The position numbers and the translations under genes are program-made. DNA of 64,000 bases. Origin: an uncultured delta proteobacterium. GTDB taxonomy: Bacteria > Desulfobacterota > Desulfuromonadia > Desulfuromonadales > BM103. The notes under the pieces were generated by a model. It did not search any database, had not been told where the DNA came from, and was given only the letters and a program-made list of their open reading frames with translations. The stretch lies in the NCBI GenBank assembly GCA_963715335.1, contig CAVQRZ010000009.1, forward strand, positions 32,001-96,000, written 5' to 3'. Below, piece by piece: positions 20,508 through 43,235 of the stretch. Each line of letters starts with the position of its first letter. Position 1 is the stretch's first letter.

Positions 20508-20533
20508 GGGGGCACTTGTTTTCAAGTGTCCCC
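20508..20533. repeat. REP hairpin copy
   Basis: GGGGGCACTTG-TTTT-CAAGTGTCCCC. Confidence 0.85.
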
Positions 20534-20766
20534 GGCCCCTCATCGCCCTACTCTGCTGCAATTTTACAGGACATAAAATTGCAATTATTTTTTACCCCCA
20601 CTTGCGGACATACGTTGCTTGCTATATATTACTAAAACAGTCAGGTATGGGCATCAAACATAGTCCCGAAAAACGGGGCTGGTCTGAACATTTGACTCAA
20701 GTTGAATGAAGCAGAGCCCAATTGGACACCCATAACCACAACCTTACAAGCAAGATGGAGAATATT

Positions 20767-21591
20767 ATGTCTTTTCTAACCAGAGTTTGGCGTACCTTGA
20801 TACCCGTGATCCTGCTATCGTTTGCAGTGACACCAGCCATGGCCAATGAGCCCGGCACCCTGCAATGGTACGGTCAGGCCGCGTTTAAAATTACCACCCC
20901 GGGCGGCAAGATTATCGTCATCGATCCGTTCATCACCAAAAATCCGAAAACTCCTGCTGAACTCAAGGATCTCGCCAAGCTCGGCAAGGTCGACCTGATC
21001 CTGGTTACCCACGGTCACGGCGACCATCTTGGCGATACGGGAGAATTAGCCAAGTTGACCGGCGCCAAAGTCGGGGTGAATGCTGACATGGGAAGTACCA
21101 TGGATGTCCTGGGCATCGTGCCGGCGGAGCAGCTGATCCGCTTCAACAAGAGCGGTCCGATCAAGCCTCTCGAGGGCATTACCGTGACGATGGTGCATGC
21201 CGAACACAGCTCGAGCATCGTGCACAGCGATCCGGTGACCAAAGCCAAGAGTGTTCACAACGGCGGTGAGCCGGCTGGCTATATCATTGAACTCGAGAAC
21301 GGTTTCAAGCTCTACCATGCTGGTGATACGGGGATTTTCTCTGACATGCAACTGATCGGGTCCTACTACCAACCGAACCTGGCCCTGTTGCCGATTGGCG
21401 GCCATTTCACCATGGATCCGGCCCACGCCGCCTATGCGGCCAGGGACCTTCTCAAGAGCGGCCATGTCATCCCGATTCATTACGGCACCTTCCCGCCGTT
21501 GAAGGGCACTCCGGAAGAGTTGCAGGAGGCACTTAAAGGAAGTTCCGTCAAGGTGACTGTGATGCAGCCGGGCGATATATTGAAATTCTAA
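20767..21591 (+). CDS. Secreted metallo-beta-lactamase-fold metal-dependent hydrolase
   Basis: Signal peptide, THGHGDH, HAGDT, PIHYGTF. Confidence 0.9.
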   Translation: MSFLTRVWRTLIPVILLSFAVTPAMANEPGTLQWYGQAAFKITTPGGKIIVIDPFITKNPKTPAELKDLAKLGKVDLILVTHGHGDHLGDTGELAKLTGAKVGVNADMGSTMDVLGIVPAEQLIRFNKSGPIKPLEGITVTMVHAEHSSSIVHSDPVTKAKSVHNGGEPAGYIIELENGFKLYHAGDTGIFSDMQLIGSYYQPNLALLPIGGHFTMDPAHAAYAARDLLKSGHVIPIHYGTFPPLKGTPEELQEALKGSSVKVTVMQPGDILKF

Positions 21592-21623
21592 ACCAACCCG
21601 GTTGCTTCCGCGCCTGTAAGCAG

Positions 21624-21664: not shown

Positions 21665-21690
21665 GGGGACACTTGTTTTCAAGTGTCCCC
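21665..21690. repeat. REP hairpin copy (perfect)
   Basis: GGGGACACTTG-TTTT-CAAGTGTCCCC. Confidence 0.9.
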
Positions 21691-21698: not shown

Positions 21699-22520
21699 TC
21701 ATCGCCAGGTAATCGGTGGCGTTTTACGCTTGGGGATCCGGTGATAACGAAACTGCGGATAACCGAGCATCATCGCCCCACAGCATTGATGTCCTTCAGG
21801 CAGGTCCAGGGCCTGCTGCAGCGGTGGGAAAGTACTCGCAGCAGCATTAAAGTAACCCGCCCAACAGCCGCCAAGGTCCATGCCGGTTGCGGCCAGCTCC
21901 AGGTAGGTTAAAGCAATCGTGCAGCTGGTCAGGCTGACCTGATCATCTTTGGGTGCATGAGCAACCACCAGCACCGGAGCGCCACGCAGAACAACATCCT
22001 CGCCCTCTTCCAGCCTGCGCAGGGCATTATCAAGGTGGTAGGTCAAAGCGACCTCTTTCATGTTTTCCAGCATCCACCCCATCCACTGGCCAACCCCCCG
22101 GATCAGCTTGTTCAATTCATCACGATCGCTCAGCACCAGCCATGCCACCGTTTGCGTGTTATGTCCGGTCGGTGCAAAACGAGCCGTTTCAATCAGCTTT
22201 TGCACGGTTTCGCGAGGTACTGCTTGATCGCGGTAATTACGAATAGACCGGCGGCCCCGCAAGAACTGTTCACACTGCTCGGCAGATAACGACAGCTCCG
22301 GTTGCATGTCCGGGCACTCGGTTAATGGCATCTCGGCATGCAACAAGCTGCCGGTTTTGCAAACCGCAACGCAATGGCCACAGCGAATACAAAGTTTCTC
22401 CGCCGCATCAATCGGGGTCGGATATTCGCCCCTGGTGAAGGTGATTAGCTTGGCCGGACAAACCGCGCTACAGAAGCCATCTTTGTTGCAGGTTTGCTGG
22501 TCGATTTCGATAAAATTCAC
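21699..22520 (-). CDS. Nitroreductase with N-terminal 4Fe-4S ferredoxin domain
   Basis: CNKDGFCSAVCP and CIRCGHCVAVC; RRSIRNY, APTGHNTQ, GGCWAG. Confidence 0.9.
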   Translation of the reverse strand: MNFIEIDQQTCNKDGFCSAVCPAKLITFTRGEYPTPIDAAEKLCIRCGHCVAVCKTGSLLHAEMPLTECPDMQPELSLSAEQCEQFLRGRRSIRNYRDQAVPRETVQKLIETARFAPTGHNTQTVAWLVLSDRDELNKLIRGVGQWMGWMLENMKEVALTYHLDNALRRLEEGEDVVLRGAPVLVVAHAPKDDQVSLTSCTIALTYLELAATGMDLGGCWAGYFNAAASTFPPLQQALDLPEGHQCCGAMMLGYPQFRYHRIPKRKTPPITWR

Positions 22521-22600
22521 GGCTTTTCTCCTTAGGCGCTGATTGCCGCAATGACTGGCAGCATAGCTCTTGATAGCTCAGTGGAAAGCTTCTAAGAGGA

Positions 22601-22635
22601 ATTGTAGCAATGATGAATACGAAGGGCAAATGACT
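22601..22635 (-). promoter_or_regulatory. sigma70 promoter TTGCCC-N17-TACAAT (extended -10), identical to 36764-36798
   Basis: Reverse complement AGTCAT TTGCCC TTCGTATTCATCATTGC TACAAT; points into the nitroreductase gene. Confidence 0.7.
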
Positions 22636-22640
22636 TACAA

Positions 22641-22665
22641 GGGACACTTGATTTTAAGTGTCCCC
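22641..22665. repeat. REP hairpin copy
   Basis: GGGACACTTGATTTTAAGTGTCCCC. Confidence 0.85.
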
Positions 22666-22771
22666 GAATCCTGATCGTCTCACTGTACTCCCTTAAAAGA
22701 ATGTTATCAGAACATTAGAATTGCTATTATGACCCCAGAGTCACACCATCCGTCCTGTCCCGGAGATTGAT

Positions 22772-23173
22772 GTGAACCGCACGGCATTCGAACGACTGGT
22801 TGAAAAAACCCTGGCAACACTACCGACGGAGTACGCCGGCCGGCTGCACAACCTGGTCTTTTTGATCGAAGACTGGGCCGACCCCGCAACTCTTGCCGAG
22901 GTTGCTATCGACGATCCGGCCGAACTGCTCGGCTACTACAACGGCACGCCCTTGACCGAGCGGTCTCATGACCAAATCGATCCAGGACCCGATCGGATCA
23001 CTCTCTACCACGGAGCCATCGAACTGCAAGCCAGGTTGAGCGGGCTACCGATCCGCCAAGTGATCCGCGAAACTCTGTGGCACGAAATCGCCCATTACTT
23101 CGGCTTCAGCGAGGAAGAAATGGACCGTATCGAGGATTTCTGGGCGGATCAAAGTTTTCCGGAATCACGCTAG
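22772..23173 (+). CDS. Minimal zincin-like metallopeptidase family protein
   Basis: LLGYYNG, PDRITLY, HEIAHYFG. Confidence 0.85.
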   Translation: MNRTAFERLVEKTLATLPTEYAGRLHNLVFLIEDWADPATLAEVAIDDPAELLGYYNGTPLTERSHDQIDPGPDRITLYHGAIELQARLSGLPIRQVIRETLWHEIAHYFGFSEEEMDRIEDFWADQSFPESR

Positions 23174-23316
23174 AGTTGTTGCAACGCGGAGTTTGGGGAC
23201 ACGCAAAATAGAGTGTTTCCTCGCTGGAAAGGCTGGAGTCACACGGCCCGGAAAGAAAGAATGCACCATCCAACTGGACGGTGCACTCTTTCATCTCTCA
23301 GGTCGTATCGACGAGA

Positions 23317-23883
23317 TTACATAGGCATAGTGATACTGAATGCACCGAGTATCTCGCCGAGTGAGAAACCAACCGATTGATCTGCAGGGTACATTTCATT
23401 CAGTTTGGTTTTCAGATCGCTTGGTATTTGTTTGCCGTGGCAGGTCAGGCAGGGTTCGCCAACTGGAATGGCCTTCATGTAACGGAAGACTTGTTTCCCG
23501 TCAACAGTCAGAGCCTCATAATGTTCCATTTCTCCAACGGCCTCACCATTCCCCCTTCTCTCCTCAAATGACTGAAGGATTCCTTGCTCCCAATTGTCGG
23601 GGGCATTCTCAGGATTCCTATATTTGAGACTGGTCCTCGCGATTATCAGGTCTCTCCCTCGAGAGAGATTTTCTGCAATCCCAGGGGCTTTTTGGCTGCA
23701 GACGGATACGGCATTCAATGGGCCACCTTGTTTTAGGGAGGAAAGCAATTCGGCTTTGAGTTCGCCGCCAAATTGTTTGATAACCTGCCTGCTCTCGGTT
23801 AGGGGGTTATTCTCAACCGAAAATGCTTCTGTCACCATAAATGCCATTGTCAGAACAATCGCCAAGAGGCTGATTTTGTGCAT
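23317..23883 (-). CDS. DUF3365/Tll0287-like monoheme c-type cytochrome
   Basis: Signal peptide, RTSLKYRNPENAPD, CLTCHG, GAFS. Confidence 0.85.
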   Translation of the reverse strand: MHKISLLAIVLTMAFMVTEAFSVENNPLTESRQVIKQFGGELKAELLSSLKQGGPLNAVSVCSQKAPGIAENLSRGRDLIIARTSLKYRNPENAPDNWEQGILQSFEERRGNGEAVGEMEHYEALTVDGKQVFRYMKAIPVGEPCLTCHGKQIPSDLKTKLNEMYPADQSVGFSLGEILGAFSITMPM

Positions 23884-24003
23884 AGCTCCCAACCTTTCAT
23901 TAAAGTAGCGCCTTCAAATCTGAATCCTGATTGATATCGGTAAAAAGAGGGCCGAGTTCCTTGCCGGCGTCGCCCCCCTGACGACTGCTGCGACCATATT
24001 CGA

Positions 24004-25374
24004 CTAGTAACTGACGTTGGTTTGTGCGGCCGCCATTTCGACACTGACAACCGGCGGTAGACGCTGTCCGGTTCGATTGAAAACTTCATCCAGAGAATGC
24101 TGCGTCATGGAACGGTACATGAGCCGCGAGGTAACCTGGTATTCGCCATTGTCGGGCAGCGGGATGCGATAGATTTCACTGTCCTTGCCATTGGCGGGGA
24201 TGCGCCTATCGTAACCGATGCCGTGAGCCAGCCAGCTCTTGCCCGTCAAATGACCCTCGGCATCTTTAAAGAGAACGCGGAAGAAGACCGCGTCCGGGTC
24301 GACGTGGTTTTTGTCGTCGACATGGCCCGAGCTGTAGACTATCTTGCCAGCGCTATCGACCACTTCAACCTGCAGCCACATAATACGAATATAGGTGGTG
24401 CCAGTGGGAATCTTGTGCCCGGCACCAACGTTGTGAACATCGACTGTCAGTTCCAGGGTTCCGTCATCTGTGATGTTATTGGCAAGCTCGATCTCTGCGG
24501 CGGCGCGCAGGAATTCGCGCGACATTTCGGCTTGTTCCTGATTCCCCAGTTCATCCTGAACATAAGAACTGCCGCCAATAAATCCATGGAAGGGAAGGTT
24601 CTCACGCCTTTTGCCCATGAGTGCGGCACGGCCAGGTCTCTTGGTGACACCAGGTGTAGGGGTCATGTGACAATCCTGACAGCGAATGCCCTGTTTGCCA
24701 TATTCGTTGTTCTTCCAGTCATCCCAGGTGTCTATGATGTGGGTCCCGGTCGCGGGATGAATGACCATGTGACAGGAGCCACAGAAGTCTGCTTTGGTAT
24801 GAATCTCGGTAAATTTCACCTCATGATAGAGTGATCGGCCATCACCACGAGGACCTCGTTTTACCGGGCCCGGTTCCGAAATATGACCCATATTGAACAT
24901 CTGCCCGACCCCGGAAACGGTGTGGCAAAAATCGCAGGAGATTCCCCGACGCGATGTGGCATCAAACTGGCTACCATCGGCGGGAGGCAGTAAGCCGGTA
25001 CGTGCCGCAATAGGCGCATGACAGGCGCCACACAAAAGGTCTGTGGCACCGTCCGTTTGCTGATGCGCCAGGATATAGTCGGGTTGATACCACTTGTCCT
25101 CCCAAGCATTGGCATGCATGGACTTTGACCATTCATTATAGATGTCGCGATGACATGATGAGCAGACCTTGGGGTCCTCAAAAGAACCTGGCTCAAATAT
25201 CTGGGGCATAATGTTTTCCGCCACGGCGGAGGGATTTTCCTCAGAGGGCTTCGGTGTCTCGCCAACGGCAACAGCCACAACCGCGTCTTCCTGATCCGGA
25301 GCGGGTGGAACTGCACAGCCCATAAAAAAATTAAAGAGGCATATCGATATCACAAAAGCGATAAAACATTTCAT
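24004..25374 (-). CDS. Multiheme c-type cytochrome lipoprotein (5 CxxCH)
   Basis: CSSCH, CGACH, CDFCH, CGSCH, CQDCH; N-terminal Cys after a hydrophobic signal; GAGHKIPTG. Confidence 0.9.
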   Translation of the reverse strand: MKCFIAFVISICLFNFFMGCAVPPAPDQEDAVVAVAVGETPKPSEENPSAVAENIMPQIFEPGSFEDPKVCSSCHRDIYNEWSKSMHANAWEDKWYQPDYILAHQQTDGATDLLCGACHAPIAARTGLLPPADGSQFDATSRRGISCDFCHTVSGVGQMFNMGHISEPGPVKRGPRGDGRSLYHEVKFTEIHTKADFCGSCHMVIHPATGTHIIDTWDDWKNNEYGKQGIRCQDCHMTPTPGVTKRPGRAALMGKRRENLPFHGFIGGSSYVQDELGNQEQAEMSREFLRAAAEIELANNITDDGTLELTVDVHNVGAGHKIPTGTTYIRIMWLQVEVVDSAGKIVYSSGHVDDKNHVDPDAVFFRVLFKDAEGHLTGKSWLAHGIGYDRRIPANGKDSEIYRIPLPDNGEYQVTSRLMYRSMTQHSLDEVFNRTGQRLPPVVSVEMAAAQTNVSY

Positions 25375-25592
25375 CTGTTCTCCCTTGGGCTACTCTATTA
25401 GATTCAGCTAATATTGAAATATACAGGAGGCCAGTGGATTGTCAAGACAACGAGGGAAGCATTAAAAACGATGGGCGATCCACAAGCACAAGTTCTTTTT
25501 ACAAACCGAAAGAACTCCACCTAAGGCACGTAACCTGGAACCGGCAGTTCAGCCAAAACGGTTGTTAGAATATTATGCGAACGTTGGCCATT

Positions 25593-25656
25593 GGGGACAC
25601 TCAAAAGGGACACTTGTTTTCAAGTGTCCCCGGCTGCTTGAGTGTCCCCGGCTCCG
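25593..25656. repeat. Compound (nested) REP
   Basis: GGGGACACTCAAAA-GGGACACTTGTTTTCAAGTGTCCCC-GGCTGCTTGAGTGTCCCCGGCTCC. Confidence 0.9.
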
Positions 25657-25660
25657 GCCC

Positions 25661-26509
25661 CTATTCGGCTTTGACAATATGCACATCCCGTTGTGGGAAA
25701 GGGATACTGATTTGCGCTTCGATTAACGCTTTGTGGATCGCCAGGTTCACTCGGTAGAGCAGATTAAAGTACATTTTGGTCGGCACCCAGTAACGCAGGC
25801 CGATATTGATTGATGATTCCGCGAACTCTTCGATACCAATCTGCGGGGCCGGTTCCTGAGTAATCTCCTCAAAACCGGTCAAGACCTGTTGTAAAACTTC
25901 GATGGCTTGTTCCGGGTCATCCCGGTAAGAAATCCCCACGCTCGTCTCAATGACCCTGTTCTCAAATGAGTTCACCAGGATTTCGCCTACGATATGCTTG
26001 TTGGGGATGGTTATCTGTTCGCCATCCTCGGTGTCAAGCAGGGTCGCGGCCAGACGGATCTCATCCACTACACCTCTGACCCCCTGCACCGTGATGGTGT
26101 TGCCAACCACAAAGGGGCGAGTCAGAATCAGGGTCAGTCCGGCACCGTAGTTGGATAAAGGACCCGCGATGGCAAAGCTGCTACCAAAAGCCAGGGCACC
26201 TAGAGCGGCGATAAATGGCGCGATGGAAATACCAAACTTGCCAATGGCTATAATGATGACAAACATCATCACTATAAGTTTGACGCTGCTAGCGAGGAAT
26301 TTCGACAGCGTGATGTCGATATTGCGCTTTTCGCAGACCCGCAACACCAATCTCGACAGCCAGCCAGAAAGCTTGAGGCCGATAATCAGAATAATCAGCG
26401 CACCGACGATCTGGAAGCTGTACTGAATGCAGAACTCAACTACCACGTCGATGATCTTCTGCAGTATCTGGAGTTCTTCGCCGATCAACGCATTGGCTTC
26501 AGGATTCAT
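25661..26509 (-). CDS. mscS: Small-conductance mechanosensitive channel
   Basis: Three TMs, RPFVVGN, IPNK, IPFPQRDVH. Confidence 0.9.
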   Translation of the reverse strand: MNPEANALIGEELQILQKIIDVVVEFCIQYSFQIVGALIILIIGLKLSGWLSRLVLRVCEKRNIDITLSKFLASSVKLIVMMFVIIIAIGKFGISIAPFIAALGALAFGSSFAIAGPLSNYGAGLTLILTRPFVVGNTITVQGVRGVVDEIRLAATLLDTEDGEQITIPNKHIVGEILVNSFENRVIETSVGISYRDDPEQAIEVLQQVLTGFEEITQEPAPQIGIEEFAESSINIGLRYWVPTKMYFNLLYRVNLAIHKALIEAQISIPFPQRDVHIVKAE

Positions 26510-26570
26510 CTGAGTACCTCCCAGGTTCGTATGGAGTTAGACAAAGCGATCATTGATTAAGGGCTTTTGG

Positions 26571-26631
26571 TTTTGAGTGTCTCCGACTCCCAAGTGTCCC
26601 CGGCTCCTTAGGATAGGGATTGTGTCCCCCG
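26571..26631. repeat. Cluster of REP right half-sites
   Basis: TTTTGAGTGTCTCC, CAAGTGTCCCCGGCTCC, TGTGTCCCCC. Confidence 0.65.
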
Positions 26632-26650
26632 ATTTACACTTGCTGATTGG

Positions 26651-28351
26651 CTATAGCCTCCCCGAACGGATGATGGAGATGACCAGCCACAAGCCGAGAA
26701 AGGCGGCGATGCCGAAGACGATGAAACCGAGGGCCGAAAAGCCGTAGAGGCTCGGCCCCACCTTCAGGGCATGCATGATCGCAGAACAGAGGAGCATGGC
26801 GCTGATGATCATCGCCATGACGATGCGGTTGATCGAGCGGTCGAAATCCTTGATGATCGGATCCAGCCCCTTGATGGTGATCTTGGTGTTGATATCATCA
26901 CGCAGCACCTTGCTGATAATCCTCTTCAGCTGCTTTGGCAGTATGGCCATGAATTCTGCGCCTTCGTGGAGATGTTTGATTGATTTTTTGGCGATCCGCT
27001 CGGGATTGGACTTTTCGGTCGCTGCCCGGTCGAGGTACGGACGGGAGGCGGTCACAATGTCGAACTCAGGATCAAGCATGGTGCCCATCCCCTGAATCAG
27101 GAGCATCGCTTTGTGGATCAAAAGCAGGTCTGACGGAATCTTCATCTTGTGTTTTATGATGACCTTCAGGACCGCGCCCAGGTATTCAGCAAAGTTTACT
27201 TCACTCAGAGGCAGGCCTTGCATGGGCTCGATAAAATCGGCAATGTCCTCCTTGAAATCCCTCCGGTAGGCATCGATGTCGATATCCTCGGGGATGAAGC
27301 CCATCTCTATGTGCTGGTCGATCAGCAGATCGAAATCCCGGGTGATGAAGGCCAGAAAGATGTTCACCAGGATCGCCTTCAACTCGTCGTTCACCGTGCC
27401 GCACATGCCGAAATCCATGAAGCCGAGACAGCCGTTCGACATGACCATCAGATTGCCGGGGTGGGGATCGGCGTGGAAGAAACCGTCCTCCAGCACACTC
27501 TTGAAATAGGCATCGACACCAACCTGGGCAACTTTTTTCCGGTCCACCCCCATGGCGGTGATCCCCTCCAGGTCATCGACTCTCACCCCGCGGATCCGTT
27601 CCATGACCAGCACCCGCTCGGTGGTGTAATCATGGTAGAGCAGAGGGATGTGGATCCCTTCGAAATCCTGAAACAGACGGCGCAGGCGGATACAGTTGCG
27701 CCCCTCCTCACGGAAGTTCAACTCCCTGCGGATGGTCCTCTGGAACTCCACCACGATCCCCACCGGGTTGAGGAAACGGCTATCCGGGATGTGGGCTTCC
27801 ATGAGGCGGGCCACGGTGAAGAGGATCTCGATGTCGGTTTGGATGGTGGTGGCGATGTCCGGTCTCTGGACCTTGACGATCACTTCGCTGCCGTCGAGCA
27901 GGGTGGCCGCATGGACCTGGCCGATCGAGGCAGCGGCCAGCGGCACCGGGTCAAAGTCGCGGAAGATTTCGGCATGCGGCCGTTTGAGCTCTTCTTCGAC
28001 GATGCGCAGGGCGATTTGAGCGGAGAACGGCGGAACCTGATCCTGCAGCAGCTGGAACTCGTTGGCGAACCGGATAGGCACCAGGTCAGGCCGGGAACCG
28101 ATGACCTGGGCCAGCTTGATAAAGGTTGGGCCGAGTTCGGTAAATGCCGTCCGCAGACGCTGCGGGGCATAGGGCCCGCGCAGGATCGTCGGCCAACTGG
28201 TGAATGAACCGAGGCGTCTGAAGAAAGGGATGAACCTTCCCAGGTGAATCTGGTCGATGAAGTTGCCGAAACCGTGTCTGATGAAGACATTGACTATTTT
28301 GCGGAGACGGCGGGCAATCCGGTAATTTTTCGACAGGTACAAAAAGCTCAT
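26651..28351 (-). CDS. ABC1/UbiB family atypical kinase
   Basis: LGPTFIKLAQ, AAASIGQVH, VKVQRP, FFHADPHPGN, DFGM. Confidence 0.92.
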   Translation of the reverse strand: MSFLYLSKNYRIARRLRKIVNVFIRHGFGNFIDQIHLGRFIPFFRRLGSFTSWPTILRGPYAPQRLRTAFTELGPTFIKLAQVIGSRPDLVPIRFANEFQLLQDQVPPFSAQIALRIVEEELKRPHAEIFRDFDPVPLAAASIGQVHAATLLDGSEVIVKVQRPDIATTIQTDIEILFTVARLMEAHIPDSRFLNPVGIVVEFQRTIRRELNFREEGRNCIRLRRLFQDFEGIHIPLLYHDYTTERVLVMERIRGVRVDDLEGITAMGVDRKKVAQVGVDAYFKSVLEDGFFHADPHPGNLMVMSNGCLGFMDFGMCGTVNDELKAILVNIFLAFITRDFDLLIDQHIEMGFIPEDIDIDAYRRDFKEDIADFIEPMQGLPLSEVNFAEYLGAVLKVIIKHKMKIPSDLLLIHKAMLLIQGMGTMLDPEFDIVTASRPYLDRAATEKSNPERIAKKSIKHLHEGAEFMAILPKQLKRIISKVLRDDINTKITIKGLDPIIKDFDRSINRIVMAMIISAMLLCSAIMHALKVGPSLYGFSALGFIVFGIAAFLGLWLVISIIRSGRL

Positions 28352-28568
28352 CAGGTGATCCTTTGCATGGAGGCGGCTCGCTCTGGGCGCGGCTGCCGGA
28401 AAGTCTTCGAGGCAGGGTGCCGCCCTTGACTCAGGACATTTAACGGTTTGGTTTGTCCGATGTCAAGGTCTGAGCCCTTTTCCGGGCTATAATTGGCGAC
28501 GGCTGTTGCGATCTACCGGGAAAACACTAATATTGTACTTGTTTGCGACCACAAGGGAGGGCAACAGG

Positions 28569-29360
28569 ATGAGCCAGCAACGGCTTTACCACATCGGCTT
28601 CGGCCGCAAAGACCTCGGCGCGATGCCGCCGACCACCGCCCTGCTCTGCGGCGACCCGGAGCGGGCACGGCGCATCGCCATGCAGACCGACGGCGTCAAA
28701 TGCCTGGCGACGCTCTCGGAGAACCGCGGCCTGCACAGCTACCTGTGTGAAAACGCCGACGGTCGCAAGTTCGTCGCCAGCACCAGCGGCATGGGGGCGC
28801 CATCACTGTCGATCGTCGTCAACGAACTGGTCGCGGTCGGTATCCGCACCATCATCAGGGTCGGCACCAGCGGCGGCATCGGCCAAGAGGTCAAAGCCGG
28901 CGATCTGGTGATCTCCAGCGCCGCACTCTGCCGTCAGGGCGCTGCCCTTGATATCGCCCCGGCCGAGTTTCCTGCCGCCGCGGACCCCTATGTCACCGTG
29001 GCCTTGACCGGTGCGGCGAAAAAGCTCGGCATCGCTGCGCACCTCGGCGTTACGGCGAGCGTCGACACCTTCTACGAGGGACAGGAACGCAGCGACTCGG
29101 CCAACCCGCACCTGTTGCGCTGTCTGCACGGGATCAGTGAGGAGTACCGCCAGCTAAGGATTCTCAATTACGAGATGGAGGCCGGCACCCTGTTCAAAAT
29201 GGGCCTGGTTTATGGCTTTGCCGCAGGCTGTGTCTGTGCGGTGCTGGCTGAACGGTTGGTGGCGGAGTCTGTCGACCTGGCTGTCAAGCAGCAAGCCGAG
29301 CGAGATGCGGTACGGGTAGCACTGGGGGCTCTTCAGGATTTGGGGAACGGGGACACTTAA
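28569..29360 (+). CDS. udp: Uridine phosphorylase / nucleoside phosphorylase
   Basis: GDPERA, SGMGAPS, IRVGTSG, FYEGQER, NYEMEA; stop codon lies inside a REP. Confidence 0.85.
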   Translation: MSQQRLYHIGFGRKDLGAMPPTTALLCGDPERARRIAMQTDGVKCLATLSENRGLHSYLCENADGRKFVASTSGMGAPSLSIVVNELVAVGIRTIIRVGTSGGIGQEVKAGDLVISSAALCRQGAALDIAPAEFPAAADPYVTVALTGAAKKLGIAAHLGVTASVDTFYEGQERSDSANPHLLRCLHGISEEYRQLRILNYEMEAGTLFKMGLVYGFAAGCVCAVLAERLVAESVDLAVKQQAERDAVRVALGALQDLGNGDT

Positions 29361-29426
29361 AAGGGACACTTGTTTTCAAGTGTCCCCAGCTCAAAAGGGA
29401 CACTCAATTTTGAGTGTCCCCGGCTC
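29343..29426. repeat. Compound REP with two hairpins; first 45 bp identical to 30070-30114
   Basis: GGGAACGGGGACACTTAAAAGGGACACTTGTTTTCAAGTGTCCCC-AGCTCAAAA-GGGACACTCAATTTTGAGTGTCCCCGGCTC. Confidence 0.9.
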
Positions 29427-31297: not shown

Positions 31298-31300
31298 GAG

Positions 31301-34545: not shown

Positions 34546-34843
34546 AGGCAGAAGGTCCTTTTGAAGTCGGTGTCATCGGGGTCCGGTGTCAGGCTTGACT
34601 GATGGGTATTTCGCATACCACCTCTCCGGCAAAAATAAAGAGGAATGCAACGCCTGAAACAGCGTCACAGCCCCCTCCCGTAAAAATAGACGACATATTA
34701 GACCAGACTAAAGCACCCTGTTAAAAATACCCTTTCAACTGTGATTGTCAATTATTCTGATGACCTGCCAAAAGCAACCGGCACCACCCGGATCATGAAA
34801 TCGGGACAGGCCGCGGCGCAGCAGCCGCAGAGCCAGGAGTCTA

Positions 34844-34873
34844 GGGACACTTGTTTTTAAGTGTCCCCGGCTC
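34844..34873. repeat. REP hairpin copy
   Basis: GGGACACTTGTTTTTAAGTGTCCCCGGCTC. Confidence 0.9.
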
Positions 34874-34912
34874 TGAGCTGGTGAAAAAGGGCGGTTTCCG
34901 GACAGAAACGAA

Positions 34913-35422
34913 TTAGCTGATACCCGCTTCCTCCTGCAGCAGAGACACCCAGGCGGCCAGGCGCTGCTCGGTAAGCTGGTCCTGATTTTCGACATCAAGG
35001 GGCAGACCGAGGAAATAATCCCCTTCAACCGCGGCGGAGGCAGAGTAATCGTAGCCTTTATCCGGCCATTTGCCGATGATGGTCGCTCCGGCCGCCACCG
35101 CCAGATCATGCAGTGCCTTCATCCCGTCGACAAAGGCATCAGGGTAACCGACCTGATCTCCGACCCCGTACAAAGCGACCTTTGCCCCCTCCAACTGTGC
35201 CTCGCGCAGGCAGTCATAGGCGTCGTTCCAGTCGTTTTGCAGGCGATCCCCCTCATCGTGCCAGCTTGAAGTGCCGAGAATCAGCAGGTCACAGCTTTCC
35301 AGATCCGCCCGGGTTGCGTTGGCAATGGGATAAAGGCGTGCGGTGGTGATTCGCTCCGCAAGACGTTGCGCGATTAAGGCGGTATTGCCAGTGCTGCCGC
35401 CGTAAAATATTCCGATTTTCAT
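34913..35422 (-). CDS. fldA: Long-chain flavodoxin, copy B (protein identical to copy A)
   Basis: Identical 169-aa translation in the ORF track. Confidence 0.88.
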   Translation of the reverse strand: MKIGIFYGGSTGNTALIAQRLAERITTARLYPIANATRADLESCDLLILGTSSWHDEGDRLQNDWNDAYDCLREAQLEGAKVALYGVGDQVGYPDAFVDGMKALHDLAVAAGATIIGKWPDKGYDYSASAAVEGDYFLGLPLDVENQDQLTEQRLAAWVSLLQEEAGIS

Positions 35423-35509
35423 GATGACTCCTTTATCGACGAAGATAAAATCAATTTAAAACGTTAACCAGTTTGACATGTTAGCATATCAGCGCGGTCA
35501 GAGTGGAGT

Positions 35510-35559
35510 GGGGTCAGGTCTAGAAATTTGAATTGACTCAAGATTAACGACCTGACCCC
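35510..35559. repeat. Second palindrome type GGGGTCAGGTC-N28-GACCTGACCCC
   Basis: Perfect 11-bp inverted repeat, followed by REP half-sites to 35587. Confidence 0.75.
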
Positions 35560-35589
35560 GTCAGGAGTGCCCCCGACTCAGTGTCCCAA

Positions 35590-35958
35590 TTAATTATCCC
35601 GACTCTTAGCCTTGTATTCATTGTATTTTTTTGACGAGCCTTTGACCTGCTCGGCAGGATATTTCTGTTCATTCAGCGATATCTTTTGCTGGGCGGCCTG
35701 AACCAAATCAACCCCTAACTTTTCTGACATGCGCAGCAGATAAACAAAAATGTCGGCAAGTTCCAAACGCACCTCCGCCAGCTTGTCATCTGACAAATTA
35801 TAGCTCTGTTCTTCGGTTAACCACTGGAAGTGTTCCACCAGTTCAGCAGCCTCGGCGATCAGAGCCATGGATAAATTTTTCGGCGAGTGAAACTGGTCCC
35901 AATCACGTTCGGCAGCGAAACCGTTTATTCGTTCAATCAGTTCAGTAAGTTCTGACAT
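35590..35958 (-). CDS. MazG-like nucleotide pyrophosphohydrolase (dCTPase-like)
   Basis: ERDWDQFHSPKNL, EAAEL, ELADI, KYP. Confidence 0.9.
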   Translation of the reverse strand: MSELTELIERINGFAAERDWDQFHSPKNLSMALIAEAAELVEHFQWLTEEQSYNLSDDKLAEVRLELADIFVYLLRMSEKLGVDLVQAAQQKISLNEQKYPAEQVKGSSKKYNEYKAKSRDN

Positions 35959-36025
35959 GACTATCTCCAGGAACAATCATTGAATATCCTTGCTTAAAAG
36001 GGGCTCTCTGCTTTAAGTGTCCCCA
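35942..36025. repeat. 84-bp direct repeat, copy A (copy B 36951-37034), flanking the RAYT gene
   Basis: Contains the mazG start/RBS region and a degenerate REP ending TTTAAGTGTCCCCA. Confidence 0.9.
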
Positions 36026-36058
36026 TTTCCAAATAAATCTGCAAGAGAAACATTGATT

Positions 36059-36083
36059 GGGGACACTTGTTTTCAAGTGTCCC
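36059..36083. repeat. REP hairpin 2 bp downstream of the RAYT stop codon
   Basis: GGGGACACTTGTTTTCAAGTGTCCC. Confidence 0.9.
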
Positions 36084-36085
36084 TT

Positions 36086-36718
36086 TTATAATGTGCGGCC
36101 CAACAATTGTTCAAGCTTCAGCAACATTGCGGGATTACACAAAGGGCGCCCACTTCGGGTCGCCTGATCAATCTTTCTCCTCACCTCCACATCCGCCTCC
36201 AAAATAAACTGGCGATAATCATGTCGCTCATCCTCTTTGAGCCAACCAGGACATGACAGTAGAGGATCTGCACGACCTTCAAGATGGAAGCGGGCACTTG
36301 ACCAAAGATACTCGGCAGCGGTCGGTACCAGGCCCGCTTTCACAGGATTGTTCTCTATATACCTTGCTACTGACCAGAGATATTCATCGCTATCAACAAT
36401 GCAGGAATAGAAACGGTTCTGCCAAACACGACCAGAGCGCAAGTACTTGCGGTTTACATATGTCGTATAAACCTGATTTGTCCGCCCGATACCCAGAGCC
36501 AAGGCCCCGGGCTCTTGAGGGACCGCCAACAGATGGACGTGGTTTGGCATCAGGCAATAAGCCCAGATATCAACCTGAAATTTTTGAGTGTAATGTTTAA
36601 GAAGGTCAGTGTAGATCAGCCGGTCTTGATCATCGAGAAATACCGGCTCGCGGTTGTTGCCACGTTGAGTGATATGATGCGGATAGCCGACGGCCACCGC
36701 GCGAGCATTGCGTGCCAT
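36086..36718 (-). mobile_element. REP-associated tyrosine transposase (RAYT/TnpA-REP, Y1 HUH family)
   Basis: HITQRGNNR, AYCLMPNHVHLL (HUH), WQNRF, YIENNPVKAGL (catalytic Tyr), WSS; REPs on both sides; no tnpB. Confidence 0.9.
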
Positions 36719-36763
36719 GTCCCCCTCCATTAAAAGTCATAACAAAACAAATCTAATGTTGGG

Positions 36764-36798
36764 ATTGTAGCAATGATGAATACGAAGGGCAAATGACT
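36764..36798 (-). promoter_or_regulatory. sigma70 promoter of the RAYT gene, identical to 22601-22635
   Basis: TTGCCC-N17-TACAAT on the minus strand, about 45 bp upstream of the ATG. Confidence 0.7.
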
Positions 36799-36950
36799 AT
36801 TATGGGGACACTTGAAAGGGACACTTGTTTTCAAGTGTCCCCGGGCCTGAAGGCAAATGACTAAATGGTGACACTGAAAGGGACACTTGATTTAAGTCCC
36901 GGCTCAAGGCAAATATTTGGGGAACTGAAAGGGAACTTTTATTCGTTCCG
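36784..36950. repeat. Three tandem, progressively decayed compound-REP units
   Basis: Units begin GAAGGGCAAATGACT / GAAGGCAAATGACT / AAGGCAAAT, each followed by a GGGGACACTTGAAAGGGACACTTG variant. Confidence 0.8.
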
Positions 36951-37037
36951 TCAGTAAGTTCTGACATGACTATCTCCAGGAACAATCATTGAATATCCTT
37001 GCTTAAAAGGGGCTCTCTGCTTTAAGTGTCCCCAATT

Positions 37038-37820
37038 CTATTTCTTAGTTCTGGGTGGAGAAGATTCCAGGATCCCCCTGCTGCGGAGTGCCAGCCAGAC
37101 GGGTGCTGCACCGAGATCGTGCCGGACTTCGAAAAGCTCCATCGGGACGACACCGGCGGCATACTCGTTAATCGCTTTGCGCCAGTTTGCATCGTCTGTG
37201 AACGGGGCTCCCGCATCACGGATGCCCTCGTCACCGGTGAACCCCAGATAAACCAGGATGACAGGGATGCCGAGGCTACCCAACTTCCAGGTAAAAGCCA
37301 GCCGGTTCGCAAGTTGGTAATGCGAGTCGCGGGAGATGTTGACGTGTGGATTGATGCGTTGCCAGGCTTTGCATGCTTCGTCGATCGCATCGCCAATACG
37401 CTCGTGGTTCTCGATCCCTTTAGGTGAAGACGTCTTGTCGAGTCGCTTGCCAGCCGCACCCAACTCAGGCCAGTTCGCTTTCGCTTCAACAAGGACGAGT
37501 CCAGCTTTCCCCTCGATTTCACAGGTCGCAGCGATATCCCAATTCGGCGTATTTGCGCCGCGTCGATGAGCCAGCCACCAGTCCTGCAACTGTTCCCAAA
37601 CAGCATGCCCTGGCATGACTGCTGGCCCGAAACGCTCAAGACGTGCTTCCATTGGATCAGTGTAACCACGGGGCATAAAAATGGTGTCAGGTGGGAAATG
37701 GACGGGGAGCGGGGCAAGAAGTGATGCAAACTCCCTGAGGAAGTTGGGGCTTTCGGTCCAGTCGAGAACGTGTTTGCGGCTACCTCTTTCCAAAATTCCC
37801 TCTATTTTCTTAGTCTTCAA
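37038..37820 (-). CDS. Hypothetical protein, putative PD-(D/E)XK nuclease fold
   Basis: PNWDIAA...LVLVEAK and YQL motifs; defence-like context. Confidence 0.55.
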   Translation of the reverse strand: MKTKKIEGILERGSRKHVLDWTESPNFLREFASLLAPLPVHFPPDTIFMPRGYTDPMEARLERFGPAVMPGHAVWEQLQDWWLAHRRGANTPNWDIAATCEIEGKAGLVLVEAKANWPELGAAGKRLDKTSSPKGIENHERIGDAIDEACKAWQRINPHVNISRDSHYQLANRLAFTWKLGSLGIPVILVYLGFTGDEGIRDAGAPFTDDANWRKAINEYAAGVVPMELFEVRHDLGAAPVWLALRSRGILESSPPRTKK

Positions 37821-37821: not shown

Positions 37822-40800
37822 TTAATTGGGACAAAAACACAGTATCAAGTTTCTGGGCCACTTCATTATTAAAGGGACAGTTGTTTTTAAGTGTCCCCGG
37901 TTCCGTCCTCTGGAATCAGTCCAAACCACCTCAAGAACCGGCACTTCCCAACTATCAACCTTGAGCAACTTTTTAAAGTCCAGGTCCTTCGAATCGTCGG
38001 GACGACGTTCGATCATTGCAATGACCTTGACGCTCTCAATCTGCTCATTTGCTGCCGCCCATTTATCTCTGGCACTTTTGGACAATATCCCAATGGGGTA
38101 ACCGGCCGAGTTGCAGATTTCAAGCTTCTCGCCTGAAATCTTGAAATGGACAGGATCGCCGACATTGATCTTTTCCAGATGCTTATGAACGGGATTCGTC
38201 TCAGCCAATTTCCCTGCGAAATCAAGGTAAACATCCTTCATGCCGATGGTGTCATAACGTCGTTGCAACACTGAATCAGGTATCGACTTTTCTCCAGGTG
38301 GAAATGTCACCAGTTGGTCCCCGCTCAGTTTGCTCTGCAAAGTTTCACAAAACGGGTTTCTCTCATCGGCACGACGGAAGAGACTCAAGCGTCTGCTTGG
38401 CCCTAGTTATCGCCACGTAATAGACGCGCCGTTCCTCTTCTTCTTCTCCTTTGCGTGGAGCCCAGCCACCATCTGCAATGAATACGTGATCGAATTCTGT
38501 ACCCTTCGCGAAATGAACTGTGCTCAGGAATACGCCCCGTCCCATAAAGCGATCACGCTTCTGTTCGACCAGGGCTTCCCAAAGATAATCGATAGCCTGC
38601 TGAACCGGTAGCTCGGAATTCCCTGTCTCCACATGCCAGGCTTGAAGACAAGTGGCCAGGAGACTCCACCAGGGTTGCTGCGGTACGACTTTGGTTCCGG
38701 CGGATTCGACGAGTAAGGTTTCCAGTTCTGTGGCGCGCTTCAAATCGTGCCGCATTGGTTCCAAGGTCGCAAAAAACTGGTGGATCTCACGTACTCTGCC
38801 AATCGGTAGGCTCAAGTCCTGTCGAGCATAAGCGACAGGTATGCCGACATATTCAAGGGCAGCACGAATGGTTGCAAGTTCTTCGTGGGTCCGTGACAAC
38901 ACGGCGCAGTCAGACCACTGCAACGCGGGATTACACTTCTTGAGTTTTTCCAGTTGCGAGACAAGGGCCTTGGCCTGCGCATTGCGATCAGACACCTGAA
39001 GAATCTGAACACGCCCTTTGGCAAACGGGTCAAGGTGTGTCCAATCGCCACCTGGCACCAGCCGCTCTCGTCCTTTGTTGATCCGGATGGGATACTCAGT
39101 TTTCATCCGATCGCGGTTCTCAGAGATATGAGCATTCCCCGCAGCAATGATATTGGCTGTTGAGCGGAAGTTCTCAACCAGGTGATGAAAGCGGGCCTGG
39201 TAATCCTTTTCGAATTGCCGAATGAAGGCGACATTAGCCCCACGAAACGTGTAAATATTCTGGTCGTCGTCCCCCACAGCCATGATCGTCAGCTTGGCGT
39301 CGTCGTCTTCCAATGTCCGCCCGGCAATGGCAGAGACCAGATCATACTGACGCTGATCAATATCCTGATATTCATCCACCAAAATGTGCTGATACCCGGC
39401 CAGCAGCCTATCGCGAAGTTCATCTTGCACCAAGCCAGGCAGGTCCTCCTCGCCTTTCAGCAAACGGATCGCCTGATCAATCAGGGCATCGAAATCGATC
39501 CCTTCATCCCCTTCTTTGGCCAGTCTGTCGGCAAAGGATGTCCCGGTCAGCCGCATCGCCAACCCGTGATAAGTGAGGACCGTCACTCCGATGGCATCGG
39601 AGCCAACCAGTTCCCAGAGCCGATGCCGTAATGAACTGGCGGCCTGACGATTAAAGCAGAGAATGAGGACGCTACTGGCTGGGACACGAGCGACACGCAA
39701 CAGATAAGCGCAGCGATGCACGACGACACGGGTCTTTCCCGAACCTGGGCCTGCCAGCACCAACATGTTTTCGTTGACAGGAGCCGACACGATGGCCATC
39801 TGCACCGGGTTTTCCAGATTGTCGACGATCCGCCGGTAGGAGTCCTGACTGGTTGCCCGATCCAGAATCTCTTTGCGACCGGCAAAGAAGCGTTGTACGA
39901 AGTCACGTTTATCCATGGCGAAGTAAGCCGCAACCAAACCAAGCGCCTGCTTGATCTTTTCCACACCGAGGCGGGCGTACTCGTTCATGACGTGCACCTG
40001 GAATGTCCGCTCTTTATAGTGGTGCTCCAGTGGGTTGTAGTCCCCCTTGGTGTATTTCCGTTTGCTTTCAAGCAGACGGATCGTCATGGCCTGACGAAAC
40101 ACGGCCAGACCTTGTTGAAGGACGATCACCTTCTGCTCATGCAGAAACATCAAGGCTCGCTCAATCGCAGCCAGCTCATTTTTAACCTGGCCGGAGAGGA
40201 ACATGTCGCCTTTCAAGGCGGCAACCAGATCATCGAGAGAGAACTCAACCAGGATATCTGCACCAGCCGGGGTTGATTGAGGGATCTTGTCGATAATGGC
40301 CTCAAGGAGGACTTTTGCCAGACTGGAACGCAATTGCGAGGTCTTGATCAAGGCCTCCCAGTCTCGATGCAACTTGACCAGATAGTGCTCCGCATTGCGA
40401 TAAATCAGATCAAGGCTGCCTCGCTGACCTGCCAAGGCCCTTCCCGTCCCGGGCTAGGCTGCTCAAAATGGACAGTAAAAATTCTGGGACACTGGCAAAG
40501 TTCTGATCCAGGAGGCGCTGGTTCACCCGGCGTGGCGAAAGATGCAACCAACCCTCGGCATCTGGTTCTTCTTCCTGAAGCACCTTCAATAGAGCAGTTT
40601 CCAGCTCACAGACCTTGTCCAAGGCCAACAGGGAGTGATTGGCAATTTTGTAGCGTACAAAGGCCGTAAGCAGCAGGTCCCGCTTAATCAAGCCCGCTTC
40701 AGCCATATCATTCATTGTTTTGAGAATGCGCTGGGAATCCGCCATGCGTATTTGATGACCGCCCTCAGCGACCTGTTCAGGCGGGTCTATGAATTCCGGC

Positions 40801-43117
40801 AACTCGGCCAGTTGATCAGCACTCAAACCCTCATCGGGATTGGCATTCATCAGCGCCGTGAGGATTGCCATCCAGCGCCGCTTGGTCAGGACCGGCAAAT
40901 TCAAACTGGAAATTTTTTCCTGCGCTTCATCCAGATTGCGAATCGCCGGACGCCCCTGAAACACGCCAGTGCTATTGTGATTGCGCTCGACAAATCCGGC
41001 CCGCTCAAGCCAGGCAACTGCGGTTTTCACCTTGGTGTCAGCCTGACTGTCGTCGTACTCAAAACTGGTATCGACAACATCGCTCCGGAGAATTTCTCCG
41101 GTCGTGATTACAATTTCACCGTCTCGGTTCTTCTTAGCCAGCCGCAGCCCACGCAATATCTGCCAGATATCTCGAAGACTCAACTCCGACATTGCACCCA
41201 TCTTGAACTGGGTCTCGATATCCTGTTCGTCGTAGAGGAGAATGCACTCAGCATCTTTCTGATCACGACCGGCTCGTCCTGCTTCCTGAAGATAGTTCTC
41301 CAACGACCCGGGAATTTCAGCATGAATGACCAGGCGCACATTGTCCTTGTCGATCCCCATGCCGAAGGCATTCGTCGCAACAATCACCTGAATCTGCCCG
41401 GCAATGAAATCTTCTTGTATCTGTTTTTTGATCGGAGCCTTCAACCCGGCATGGAAGGCAGCAGAAGAGAGCCCCTTCTTAATCAGATATTCATTGATGT
41501 TTTCGGTCTGGCGCCGTGTTGCGGCGTAGACGACCGCAGCACCTTCCGGGGTCAAACGTTCGGCGAGGAGATCATAAACCCGCTCCATCTTCTCGGCACG
41601 GCTGACGGTCTGGACTTCGAAATGCAGATTGTCACGATCGACACCACCTTCGAAAAGTCGCAATTCCTGACCAAGCTCACGTCGGAAGTAATCAACAATC
41701 TCCTCTTCCACAGCCTTTTTCGCGGTGGCCGTGAAACAAGCGATTGCCGGAATCGGCACCCCCTGATCTTTGGAGAACTCACGGATAAACCGTGCGGCAT
41801 AGAGATAATCAGTGCGGAAGTCATGTCCCCATTTCGAAAGACAGTGCGCCTCATCGAAGACCCAGCAACCGATCTCACGCTGACTGATGACTTCCTTAAA
41901 CGAGCGATTGCGCAACTGTTCCGGGGAGACATAGAGGATGGCGGTATCGCCCAGGCGAACCGATTCGAGCACCTGCCCTCGCTCAGGCGGTGTCAACATC
42001 CCATAGAGGGCTGCGGCAAAAGGAGTGCCGGTTTTGGCAACCAGATTGTCGACCTGGTCCTTCATCAATGCCTGAAGGGGTGAAATGACAATCGTCAGCG
42101 TGCCACGTCGGTAGTTCCGTACCAGAGCAGGCAATTGAAAGCAGAGGGACTTTCCACCACCGGTGGGCAAGATTGCTAACTGTGCCTGATCACTCATGCC
42201 GTGCCGAACGATCGCTTCTTGCAGGCTGGTCCCATCTGGTGTGGAGGGCTGTGGACGGAACGCTGAAAACCCAAAATAGCGCTGCAATTGACCGACAGGA
42301 TCATGATTTAACCGGCAGTATTCACAATTCGGGTCTTCGCAGGGAACATCGCGCAATTGTCTGAGGATCGATACCGTACCAGCGAAGTTCTTTCTGACCC
42401 AGGGTGGCAGGACGGAGTTGTGCCCAGAGACCCTCAGCCAGGCAACACAGTATGCGAGGGTGGCGCACTCATCCGGGTCCCAGATGTACTGTTTGGAAAC
42501 GGTTCTCAGGGCCGACTTACAAACTTTCCCATCTGTTATTTCATTCAGAAGCTTGATTGAATCTTCGAGCTGAATTGGCTGTGCACCAAGACTCTTGAAA
42601 ACCTCGCGAAGCCCTACCCACTTGGTCGTCTGCTCATCCGAGTTTTCAAAACAGAACCGGTAGAAATCCAAAACCCGGGGGCTGTGCTGATGGAGTTGTT
42701 CAAATGCTTCCCATTGATCAGCAAAGATCGATGCTGCAAGTTGGGCGTCTGCAACGGGGTCGTTTACTGATTGACGAACCAGTTTGTAGTCTTTGACAAG
42801 ACGGTGGTAGGGGTTTTCCGGAAAAGCGAGAGGAGAAAGATAGAGGGTATCGATGACCGGCTTTTTCAGCAGGTCAAGTTGCGGGGCGATATGTCTCCAG
42901 TAGCGGTAAGTCGTGGCCAAGGATGATTGTGACCAAGGACATAGGTTGCCTCGGCACCGAACTGATCAAGTTCAGACAGAGCTTCTTTAAGGTTGAATCG
43001 GCCTTGTCTCTCAAAAGTCTGATCCTGAAAAACAGCACCGATTTTGAAGATTTTCCCTTCAGGGGTGGTTTCTAGATCAAGAAGCAGAGATTTTGTGAGA
43101 AGCTCTTGTAATTTCAT
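37822..43117 (-). CDS. Large exonuclease-like/RecQ/UvrD fusion helicase, split by at least four +1 indels
   Basis: DLET and restored GHNILGHDLP (DnaQ-like); PTGGGKS, DEAHC, QEAGRAGRD (RecQ); AGPGSGKT, DEYQD, VGDDDQ, YVAITRA (UvrD); indels near 42925, 42897, 40435, 38389. Confidence 0.85.
37874..37898. repeat. REP hairpin copy within the last codons of the helicase ORF
   Basis: GGGACAGTTGTTTTTAAGTGTCCCC. Confidence 0.8.
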
Positions 43118-43190
43118 TCAGTATCGCAATCTATAAAAATTTCCAACTCACTACAACAAGGACAAGACAATGGTCAGCCTGACATCCAAT

Positions 43191-43235
43191 GGGGGACACT
43201 TAAAAGGGCCCCTTGTTTTTAAGTGTCCCCGGCTC
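43191..43235. repeat. Compound REP (rightmost copy seen)
   Basis: GGGGGACACTTAAAAGGGCCCCTTGTTTTTAAGTGTCCCCGGCTC. Confidence 0.85.

Follow-up and report, generated by a model that had tools for sequence, protein, structure and literature searches.

The 64,000-bp window analyzed here (positions 32,001 to 96,000 of contig CAVQRZ010000009.1, GenBank assembly GCA_963715335.1, from an uncultured member of the Desulfuromonadales) contains, between positions 20508 and 43230, an array of accessory gene blocks whose edges lie at hairpin-forming repeats with the arm motif GGGGACAC. Comparison with a second contig of the same assembly, with congeners, with other genera and with metagenome contigs shows that blocks come and go, occur in duplicate and change order, with the repeats at their edges. 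One of the blocks encodes a Y1 transposase of the HUH type, and we infer that such an enzyme moves the genes; from the sequence comparisons described below we lean somewhat toward the reading that the hairpin-edged blocks would be excised and reinserted as single-stranded DNA by a TIRYT-type HUH transposase, with the lagging-strand template near the replication terminus as its probable substrate. The window lies on contig C9 of its assembly (called G000; 3.3 Mb in 43 contigs); other genomes carry G numbers, C10 and C33 are other contigs of G000, and L numbers denote loci.

An earlier, sequence-only reading of the window had listed hairpins along this segment, and they were found where it placed them. 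With up to three mismatches its 24-mer has 11 matches in the window, all on the plus strand (starting at 20509, 21666, 22641, 25607, 29363, 30090, 34844, 36060, 36818, 37874 and 43206), against a mean of 0.00 in shuffled sequences, and scanning for arms gives 15 hairpin clusters from 20508 to 43230, which include half and compound forms near 23195, 26575, 36000 and 37009. The elements occur in a full 39-nt, a shorter 26-nt and a compound form; the full element has a 14-bp stem, in which GGGGACACTYAAAA pairs with TTTTRAGTGTCCCC, and an 11-nt loop containing a second GGGACACT. Folding z values range from -3.2 to -8.1, and Rfam gave no match in the window. The proposed single polarity is true of the loop, whose T-rich strand is the plus strand in all 14 full hairpins, and nearly true of the asymmetric leader and tail, where 11 copies read plus, two are uncalled and one (36060, at the transposase stop codon) is reversed; orientation from loop composition miscalled A-loop variants, and leader/tail scoring was used instead. 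As also proposed, the hairpins sit at gene or operon boundaries: an arm is present in 14 of 16 gaps of more than 50 bp between transcription units and at none of five operon-internal junctions (gene ends for this count were set by hand, and one of the 14, at 37873, falls in the last codons of open reading frame (ORF) 37822-38388).

Outside 20.4-43.3 kb the arm scan gives four single one-mismatch arms only, at 11-16 kb, which is the background level for this genome (388 clusters in 3.3 Mb), and a half repeat of a different GGGG type lies at about 47343-47366. Genome-wide, the 24-mer with up to four mismatches occurs at 20 loci (11 in the window, five on C10 and four single copies), so that 16 of the 20 lie in two clusters; a looser arm scan gives 37 multi-arm clusters. 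The commonest foot tetramers among 88 elements are GGAG (15) and AGAG (11), in place of the GT[AG]G foot of repetitive extragenic palindromic (REP) sequences, so the local clustering and the lack of a GTAG foot had both been read correctly. The sequence-only reading had named an even genomic spread together with conserved gene order as evidence that would tell against it; the repeats are clustered and the order is not conserved. A stricter hairpin pattern is present in 14 of 24 genomes of the family and in none of 16 from other families. No viral contig with the exact hairpin pattern was found, which does not show absence, and plasmid homologues reach at most 47% identity, which likewise does not show that a plasmid vector is absent. 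Hairpins are duplicated together with 6-80 bp of flank; some hairpins are nested, tandem additions of 13 bp and 6 bp are present, and target hairpins occur in duplicate.

The order of the blocks differs from locus to locus (the orders given here name shared units only). In the window it is hydrolase, nitroreductase, zincin, cytochrome, MscS, kinase, phosphorylase, flavodoxin, ABC operon, flavodoxin, MazG, Y1 transposase and ORF260. On C10, where the block edges again fall at repeats, it is hydrolase, CDP transferase, RluA, nitroreductase, zincin, ABC operon, MscS, MazG, flavodoxin, Y1 transposase and ORF260; in G002 (contig C5) it is zincin, MscS, MazG, Fic, flavodoxin and ORF260, and at L218 it is zincin, flavodoxin and MazG. 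Flavodoxin thus precedes MazG in the window and at L218 and follows it on C10 and in G002, and the CDP transferase precedes the hydrolase at L206 and L213, the reverse of C10. At L202 the end of the ABC operon is followed by the transposase and another unit, a second Y1 gene there being of the C10 type, and in G003 a left-flank gene and a hairpin are followed immediately by MazG. Through all this the strand of the units is retained in nearly all loci. Joints such as 23202 to 29427, 36024 to 30119 and 34839 to 36805, in contigs from four runs, also cross repeats; their sides are short or not shown, and their agreement with the reordering is weak. No circle was seen in these data, which as contigs carry no information on circles or strand.

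Blocks are also shared across genera at identities well above that of a core gene. The flavodoxin unit is present in seven of 44 family genomes from four genera, and its gene is 95.7-98.2% identical in G006, G011, G018 and G051, which belong to other genera; G024 and G010 share a 1.75-kb SelO block at 94.7% identity, and each of the four ends is within 4 bp of an arm. The gyrB control gives 77.9-79.1% identity for the pairs G000-G006, G000-G011 and G010-G024, and the gyrB locus is colinear in all four genomes compared. As judged by these alignments, hairpin-edged blocks have been both reordered and exchanged between genera.

The transposase gene (36086-36730, minus strand) encodes a 214-aa protein that matches Pfam PF01797 (E 3e-14) and NCBIfam NF047646 (81.5 bits; cut-off 80), and has the motifs H64-V-H66, W103-Q104, Y124 in YIENNP, and WSS; the intact, repeat-flanked HUH Y1 transposase that the sequence-only reading saw inside the array is therefore there. 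Its NHVH, W[EQ] and Y-x-x-x-NP motifs and the SS after the core are those given for TnpA-Y1 subclass 2.1 (PMC6006769, Table 1), which Quentin et al. (PMC6006769) tentatively equate with the TIRYTs of Di Nocera et al. (PMC3733652). TIRYT repeats are described as sharing the consensus GGGGWSAS (PMC3733652), and the GGGGACAC arms on both sides of the gene fit it, with no GTAG REP. Thus, as far as their sequences tell, neither the enzyme nor the repeat motif is new; they appear to be a TIRYT-type transposase and a known repeat class, and the idea that the repeats are of a novel type was mistaken. The protein has a C-terminal extension of about 70 aa, in which Pfam has no helix-turn-helix match; its best solved relative is E. 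coli TnpA-REP (4ER8, E 0.006), and in the species collection the titles of its closest relatives name Desulfuromonadales, Geobacteraceae or a deltaproteobacterium. PF01797 has two matches only in G000, one Y1 gene in each main cluster (window and C10), and these are 66% identical to one another.

In a tree of 34 proteins the window enzyme falls within a 14-member clade with support 100/98 (the rows were picked from 49 aligned, and the tree is built from sequences gathered here). A full hairpin lies upstream of the gene in 13 of the 14 clade members and in none of the 20 proteins outside. The clade lacks the basic GRP-type C-terminal tail, a pattern matched in 13 of the 20 others, and nine of its members have whole hairpins on both sides, mostly as a direct repeat, compared with plain or strict inverted ends in 10 of the 20 outside relatives; the palindromic nature of each hairpin makes the outermost arms of the clade elements formally inverted as well. 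The closest relatives outside the clade (54-57%) bear GGGACACT terminal inverted repeats (TIRs). dN/dS is 0.05-0.15 in the nine of 21 pairs with measurable (unsaturated) dS. The clade enzyme was found in 11 of the 44 family genomes, nine of which have the hairpin pattern, and the C10 transposase block has different neighbors at L202 and in G006. Since the enzyme moves as a block and was not found in most array-bearing relatives, it is itself a mobile unit that comes and goes and not a fixed platform. At a sphingomonad locus (L088:10706-18161) a transposase (41%) is accompanied by four GGGACAGT hairpins within 8 kb, which may form a parallel array based on a different motif.

The array lies beside the chromosomal dif site (XerC/XerD; 17675-17702, minus strand), which is 2.8 kb to the left of the first hairpin, outside the array, and resembles the Geobacter sulfurreducens dif tabulated in PMC2731167. 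The dif core was found in 28 of the 44 family genomes, mostly once each. Eight contigs carry dif together with hairpins, and on them 42 copies are directed away from dif, two are directed toward it and 26 are uncalled. The polarity calls come from six contigs and cover both sides of dif, the XerD side on two contigs and the XerC side on four. Because the copies point away from dif, the A-loop strand reads toward it; this strand would be the lagging-strand template if replication forks meet near dif, and a lagging-strand bias has been reported for IS608-type transposition (PMC5027513). Because polarity follows position relative to dif, an integron-like entry site is not needed to account for it. 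On the A-loop strand the stem is preceded, at a distance of two bases, by a (G/A)GAG-like word (G/A/G being enriched at -5 to -3), and the base after the 3' arm is T in 76 of 88 asymmetric elements, or in 19 of 31 once T-runs are excluded; this word and the T resemble the guide and the C|T cut of REP enzymes as presented in PMC8266576, and we predict analogous roles for them. The window dif is flanked by a 50-bp inverted repeat pair (17491-17540 and 17860-17909, 82%), and an identical second dif core lies on contig C16, which looks like an alternative allele from another strain. At L043-L044 (G024), L047 (G006), L048 (G012) and L053 (G018), though not in G000, a hairpin is followed directly by TTATGTAAA, the XerD half of the local dif.

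These features would fit a peel-and-paste of hairpin-tagged single strands by a TIRYT. The transposase would bind the hairpin on the A-loop strand and cut nearby, C|T at the 3' foot being the candidate cut and the (G/A)GAG-like word two bases 5' of the stem the candidate guide; cutting would free a circle of hairpin plus gene, which would be inserted beside another hairpin, and arrays would grow and reorder through such insertions while the blocks retain their strand. Ton-Hoang et al. (PMC3333891) present a circle model for bacterial interspersed mosaic elements (BIMEs) that predicts the capture of flanking genes, and report that E. coli TnpA-REP cleaves and recombines REP DNA in vitro. Repeated cutting close to the feet is compatible with the nested hairpins, the tandem additions and the duplicated target hairpins. 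A broader proposal, to which we give slightly less than an even chance, is that this TIRYT clade may derive from an insertion sequence (IS)-like element with inverted ends and may since have become a cassette recombinase that acts in trans. It would be the HUH equivalent of an integron, and would capture, reorder and spread hairpin-bounded accessory genes in a Desulfuromonadales family, with its arrays at the terminus. That the arrays represent a distinct gene-cassette system has a near-even chance.

The main rival explanation is that the enzyme spreads hairpins only, as small non-autonomous elements in the intergenic gaps of a terminus hotspot, and that the host shuffles the genes, by RecA or slippage between repeats and by homology-facilitated uptake from the arrays of relatives. 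The ends of the shared blocks (at least 300 bp and at least 85% identity, inside 15 array spans that we set) bear on it most directly. An arm lies within 15 bp of 62 of 86 such ends, compared with 30.1 expected from intergenic positions, although the 86 are not independent, so that a binomial P value exaggerates the support, and shared repeats lengthen the alignments. At 36 of the 86 ends both loci have an arm, as host recombination within repeats would leave them, and 24 have an arm in neither locus; the other 26 have one in a single locus and cannot come from recombination between repeats. The rival also accommodates the imprecise ends, the hairpins duplicated with short flanks, the arrays that persist in genomes where the enzyme was not found, and the rearrangement of the wider region even where arms have decayed. 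It does less well with single blocks of 0.65-1.75 kb that stand between non-homologous neighbors in other genera at 95-98% identity, where the only homology would be a variable repeat of 25-39 bp, and with a block strand that stays constant while order changes. On this evidence we regard it as unlikely, while far more probable than any of the alternatives taken up below. Several observations nevertheless count against movement of the blocks by the transposase. Ends vary by tens of bases (in nine copies of the flavodoxin unit the left end shifts by as much as about 45 bp), and the junctions inspected do not conform to one cut site; a C|T cut at the leader is not established, CT preceding the leader in only seven of 20 truncated cases. 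The cytochrome c gene has no nearby arm in G002 and G004, the flavodoxin gene of G045 has no arms, a 4.7-kb block is missing in G002 at a hairpin-less junction, and a flavin oxidoreductase unit occurs in both orientations. Of 27 genomes with hairpins, many of them incomplete, 18 gave no clade enzyme, and four congeners with a completeness of 83-96% gave no Y1 transposase above the cut-off. As to polarity, only the six contigs noted above yield calls, and four may be one locus; the turning point of GC skew, at about 34-38 kb, falls within the array instead of at dif; and the copies on C33 oppose the single copy at the same site in G004.

That the hairpins are portable terminators, or 3' structures protecting the mRNA of horizontally gained genes, with a polarity that merely mirrors gene orientation, seems very improbable. 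Ten of the 15 clusters do lie 2-50 nt after the stop codon of a minus-strand gene (37873 excluded), and 16 of the 19 array ORFs in the window are on that strand. A terminator scan, however, calls one cluster in 20.3-40.2 kb, and on the other strand, and finds 23 sites against 20.3 in shuffled sequences; polarity is kept even where the corresponding strand carries little more than half of the ORFs, 13 of 24 in G024 and 13 of 23 in G011; and the reordering, the nested copies and the link to a single clade would be left unexplained. We give still less credence to the differing orders being an artefact of strain-mixed metagenome assembly. G000 does have 6.87% contamination and many contig ends that overlap at 83-99% identity; it is strain-mixed, and C9 and C10 may be either two loci or two strains; C10, which ends within a repeat, may stem from a co-binned strain. 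The copies in the two arrays differ by 1-29% and have distinct junctions, however, and other orders occur in separately assembled genomes and metagenome contigs, so the conclusion that blocks are reordered does not depend on the status of C9 and C10. It is just as improbable that hairpins have merely colonized an integron (IntI/attC) or a Xer/pdif-module system. The array is beside dif, XerD-like half sites abut hairpins in the four genomes named above, and G002 has an IntI; set against this, that IntI is on a different contig, no IntI passed the cut-off in G000, G006, G011 or G024, no dif-like site lies within either G000 array, and many units retain long 5' regions with promoter-like matches.

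The array begins with a hairpin at 20508-20533, found by both the 24-mer and the arm scan (all hairpins here are given on the plus strand), followed by a unit for a metal-dependent hydrolase with a metallo-beta-lactamase fold (20767-21591, plus; the neighbor of the CDP-alcohol transferase on C10, L206 and L213) and a hairpin at 21665-21690 supported by the 24-mer, the arm scan and folding. The 4Fe-4S nitroreductase unit (21699-22520, minus) is followed by a copy of the upstream, promoter-like segment of the transposase gene with its hairpin (22598-22666, plus, hairpin at 22640-22665; 78% match to 36761-36843, with a similar promoter-like match); this segment recurs before the nitroreductase gene in the window and on C10, and after MazG in G003. 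Next are the zincin-like metallopeptidase unit (22772-23173, plus), whose right-hand neighbor varies among loci, a degenerate hairpin (23195-23220) that is intact in the C10 copy, and a unit of a Tll0287-like protein and a multiheme cytochrome c (23317-25374, minus). A compound element (25593-25649) with leader, hairpin and extra right arm, which reads as one hairpin nested in another, precedes the MscS channel unit (25661-26509, minus), and two right arms (half elements, 26575-26601) precede a divergent unit of an ABC1 kinase (minus) and a uridine phosphorylase (plus) with no arm between them (26651-29360). The phosphorylase stop codon falls within the next element, a full 39-nt copy followed by a second hairpin (29349-29421).

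Two flavodoxin units follow (29466-29975 and 34913-35422, both minus); the segments 29396-30071 and 34843-35518 that contain them are 98.8% identical, and 29343-29392 is duplicated at 30070-30119, on the opposite side of the first copy. Between them are a full 39-nt element (30076-30114), an operon unit for a CrtC-like lipocalin, an FtsX/MacB permease and an ABC ATPase (30149-34545, minus; 98% to C10 32897-37630) and a hairpin (34843-34868). To the right of the second copy, 35510-35587 (plus) holds a second TIR type (GGGGTCAG...CTGACCCC) and then half arms of the array type. This second type (GGGGTCAG, window 35510-35559) travels with the flavodoxin unit and stands on both sides of the gene in G006, so that the unit may first have been mobilized by another TIRYT family. 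The MazG-like pyrophosphatase unit (35590-35976, minus) moves with a variant hairpin (36000-36024), 35924-36029 being duplicated at 36938-37038 so that a second copy of the variant lies at 37009-37033. The transposase gene has on one side the hairpin with reversed leader/tail asymmetry, 2 nt from its stop codon (36059-36084), and on the other a full 39-nt element, whose 14-bp stem is perfect, and a solitary left arm (36804-36888). The ORF260 unit (37038-37820, minus; a 260-aa protein with no Pfam, NCBIfam or PADLOC match) lies 5' of the transposase gene in each of the two G000 arrays. A hairpin at 37873-37898 and a RecQ-UvrD helicase fusion unit (37822-43117, minus) complete the series, the fusion being split into several ORFs and frames in the window and a single 1578-aa ORF in G002; the last element of the array type, a full one with mismatches, is at 43192-43230.

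Beyond it a probable further unit (43267-47366, minus) encodes a Schlafen-3 helicase with NUDIX, HIT and HNH genes, and homology with G002 stops at the half repeat of the other GGGG type. The Schlafen-3 helicase (43267-47042 with its three neighbors) matches PADLOC PDC-S41 (E 8e-291) and the NUDIX gene is PDC-S07; in G002 the helicase gene has about 100% identity, against 92.5% for gyrB. A HipA-family kinase gene lies just past the array (47592-48992). The cargo consists largely of stress or redox genes and defense-like genes. A small third cluster in G000 (L003:8068-14000, on C33) lies directly after tRNA-Ala and tRNA-Leu genes and contains cytochrome c, MarC, radical SAM and DJ-1 genes. Its 5.8-kb insert, where G004 has one element, does not make a clean empty-site comparison, since tRNA-Ala and tRNA-Leu adjoin and the polarity is opposite. 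A repeat family of about 450 bp occurs at C10:1-490 and many other places in G000 (71 masked intervals of at least 250 bp), and also in G001-G004, with no copy in the window.

The arrays offer one concrete candidate role of RAYT-family enzymes in their hosts, traffic in gene cassettes, with defined substrates, a predicted active strand and natural junctions. What appears to be new here is the repeats as boundaries of horizontally shared, reordered cassettes, together with the cross-genus identity measured against a core gene, the link to dif and the defined clade. If the proposal is true, searches for IntI and attC would miss a route of horizontal gene transfer, one in which accessory genes are swapped without an integron integrase, and a small enzyme with a 26-39-nt site could serve as a gene-shuffling tool. 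Subclass 2.1 Y1 transposases are listed for about 15% of the strains surveyed (PMC6006769, Table 1), and the portions of the literature consulted report no function for them; no paper on HUH- or TIRYT-driven gene-cassette arrays was found in a search that covered subscription journals thinly.

Among known systems, the pdif modules of Acinetobacter are likewise modular accessory genes near Xer sites, but the block boundaries here are hairpins and not XerC/XerD sites, and only the chromosomal dif matches near the array. IS200/IS605 peel-and-paste elements share the Y1 chemistry and a lagging-strand orientation bias (PMC5027513), and IS91/ISCR elements resemble the array in their variable-ended capture of neighboring DNA (PMC3333891); unlike either, the assembly has no multi-copy insertion sequence, its two transposase genes being 66% identical. 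Integrons and CALINs (PMC5371416) are described as polar arrays of unrelated accessory genes with single-strand hairpin sites that are reordered and shared across taxa, often without the enzyme and with an orientation tied to replication. The integron-like HUH platform of the sequence-only reading is partly supported: repeat-bounded blocks do reorder, and no IntI exceeds the cut-off in G000 (best TIGR02249 score 88 bits; cut-off 265). It gives way where ends are imprecise, where no fixed entry site or shared promoter was identified in the array, where polarity follows dif, and where the candidate, an HUH enzyme in place of a tyrosine recombinase, itself moves and was not found in most relatives. 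The E. coli REPtron and BIME system with TnpA-REP (PMC3333891, PMC8266576) shares an HUH Y1 enzyme beside strand-asymmetric hairpins, and the array fits its model, in which circles are excised and inserted near an existing repeat and neighboring genes are captured; REPs differ in their GTAG foot, their hundreds of dispersed copies and a stably resident enzyme, in contrast to the 20-35 or so clustered copies, the patchy enzyme and the exchange of whole genes between genera seen here. The closest parallel is the TIRtron/TIRYT (Di Nocera et al. 2013, PMC3733652), probably the same as TnpA-Y1 subclass 2.1 (Quentin et al. 2018, PMC6006769), which shares the NHVH, WQ, YIENNP and WSS motifs, the lack of a GTAG foot, GGGGWSAS-type arms and a prevalence in deltaproteobacteria; a search of these two papers by term met no gene-cassette or integron reading in the portions covered. 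The window clade appears to depart from the TIRtron in having whole hairpins mostly in direct repeat instead of an inverted pair, no basic C-terminal tail and no Pfam helix-turn-helix match, and its repeats delimit exchangeable gene blocks.

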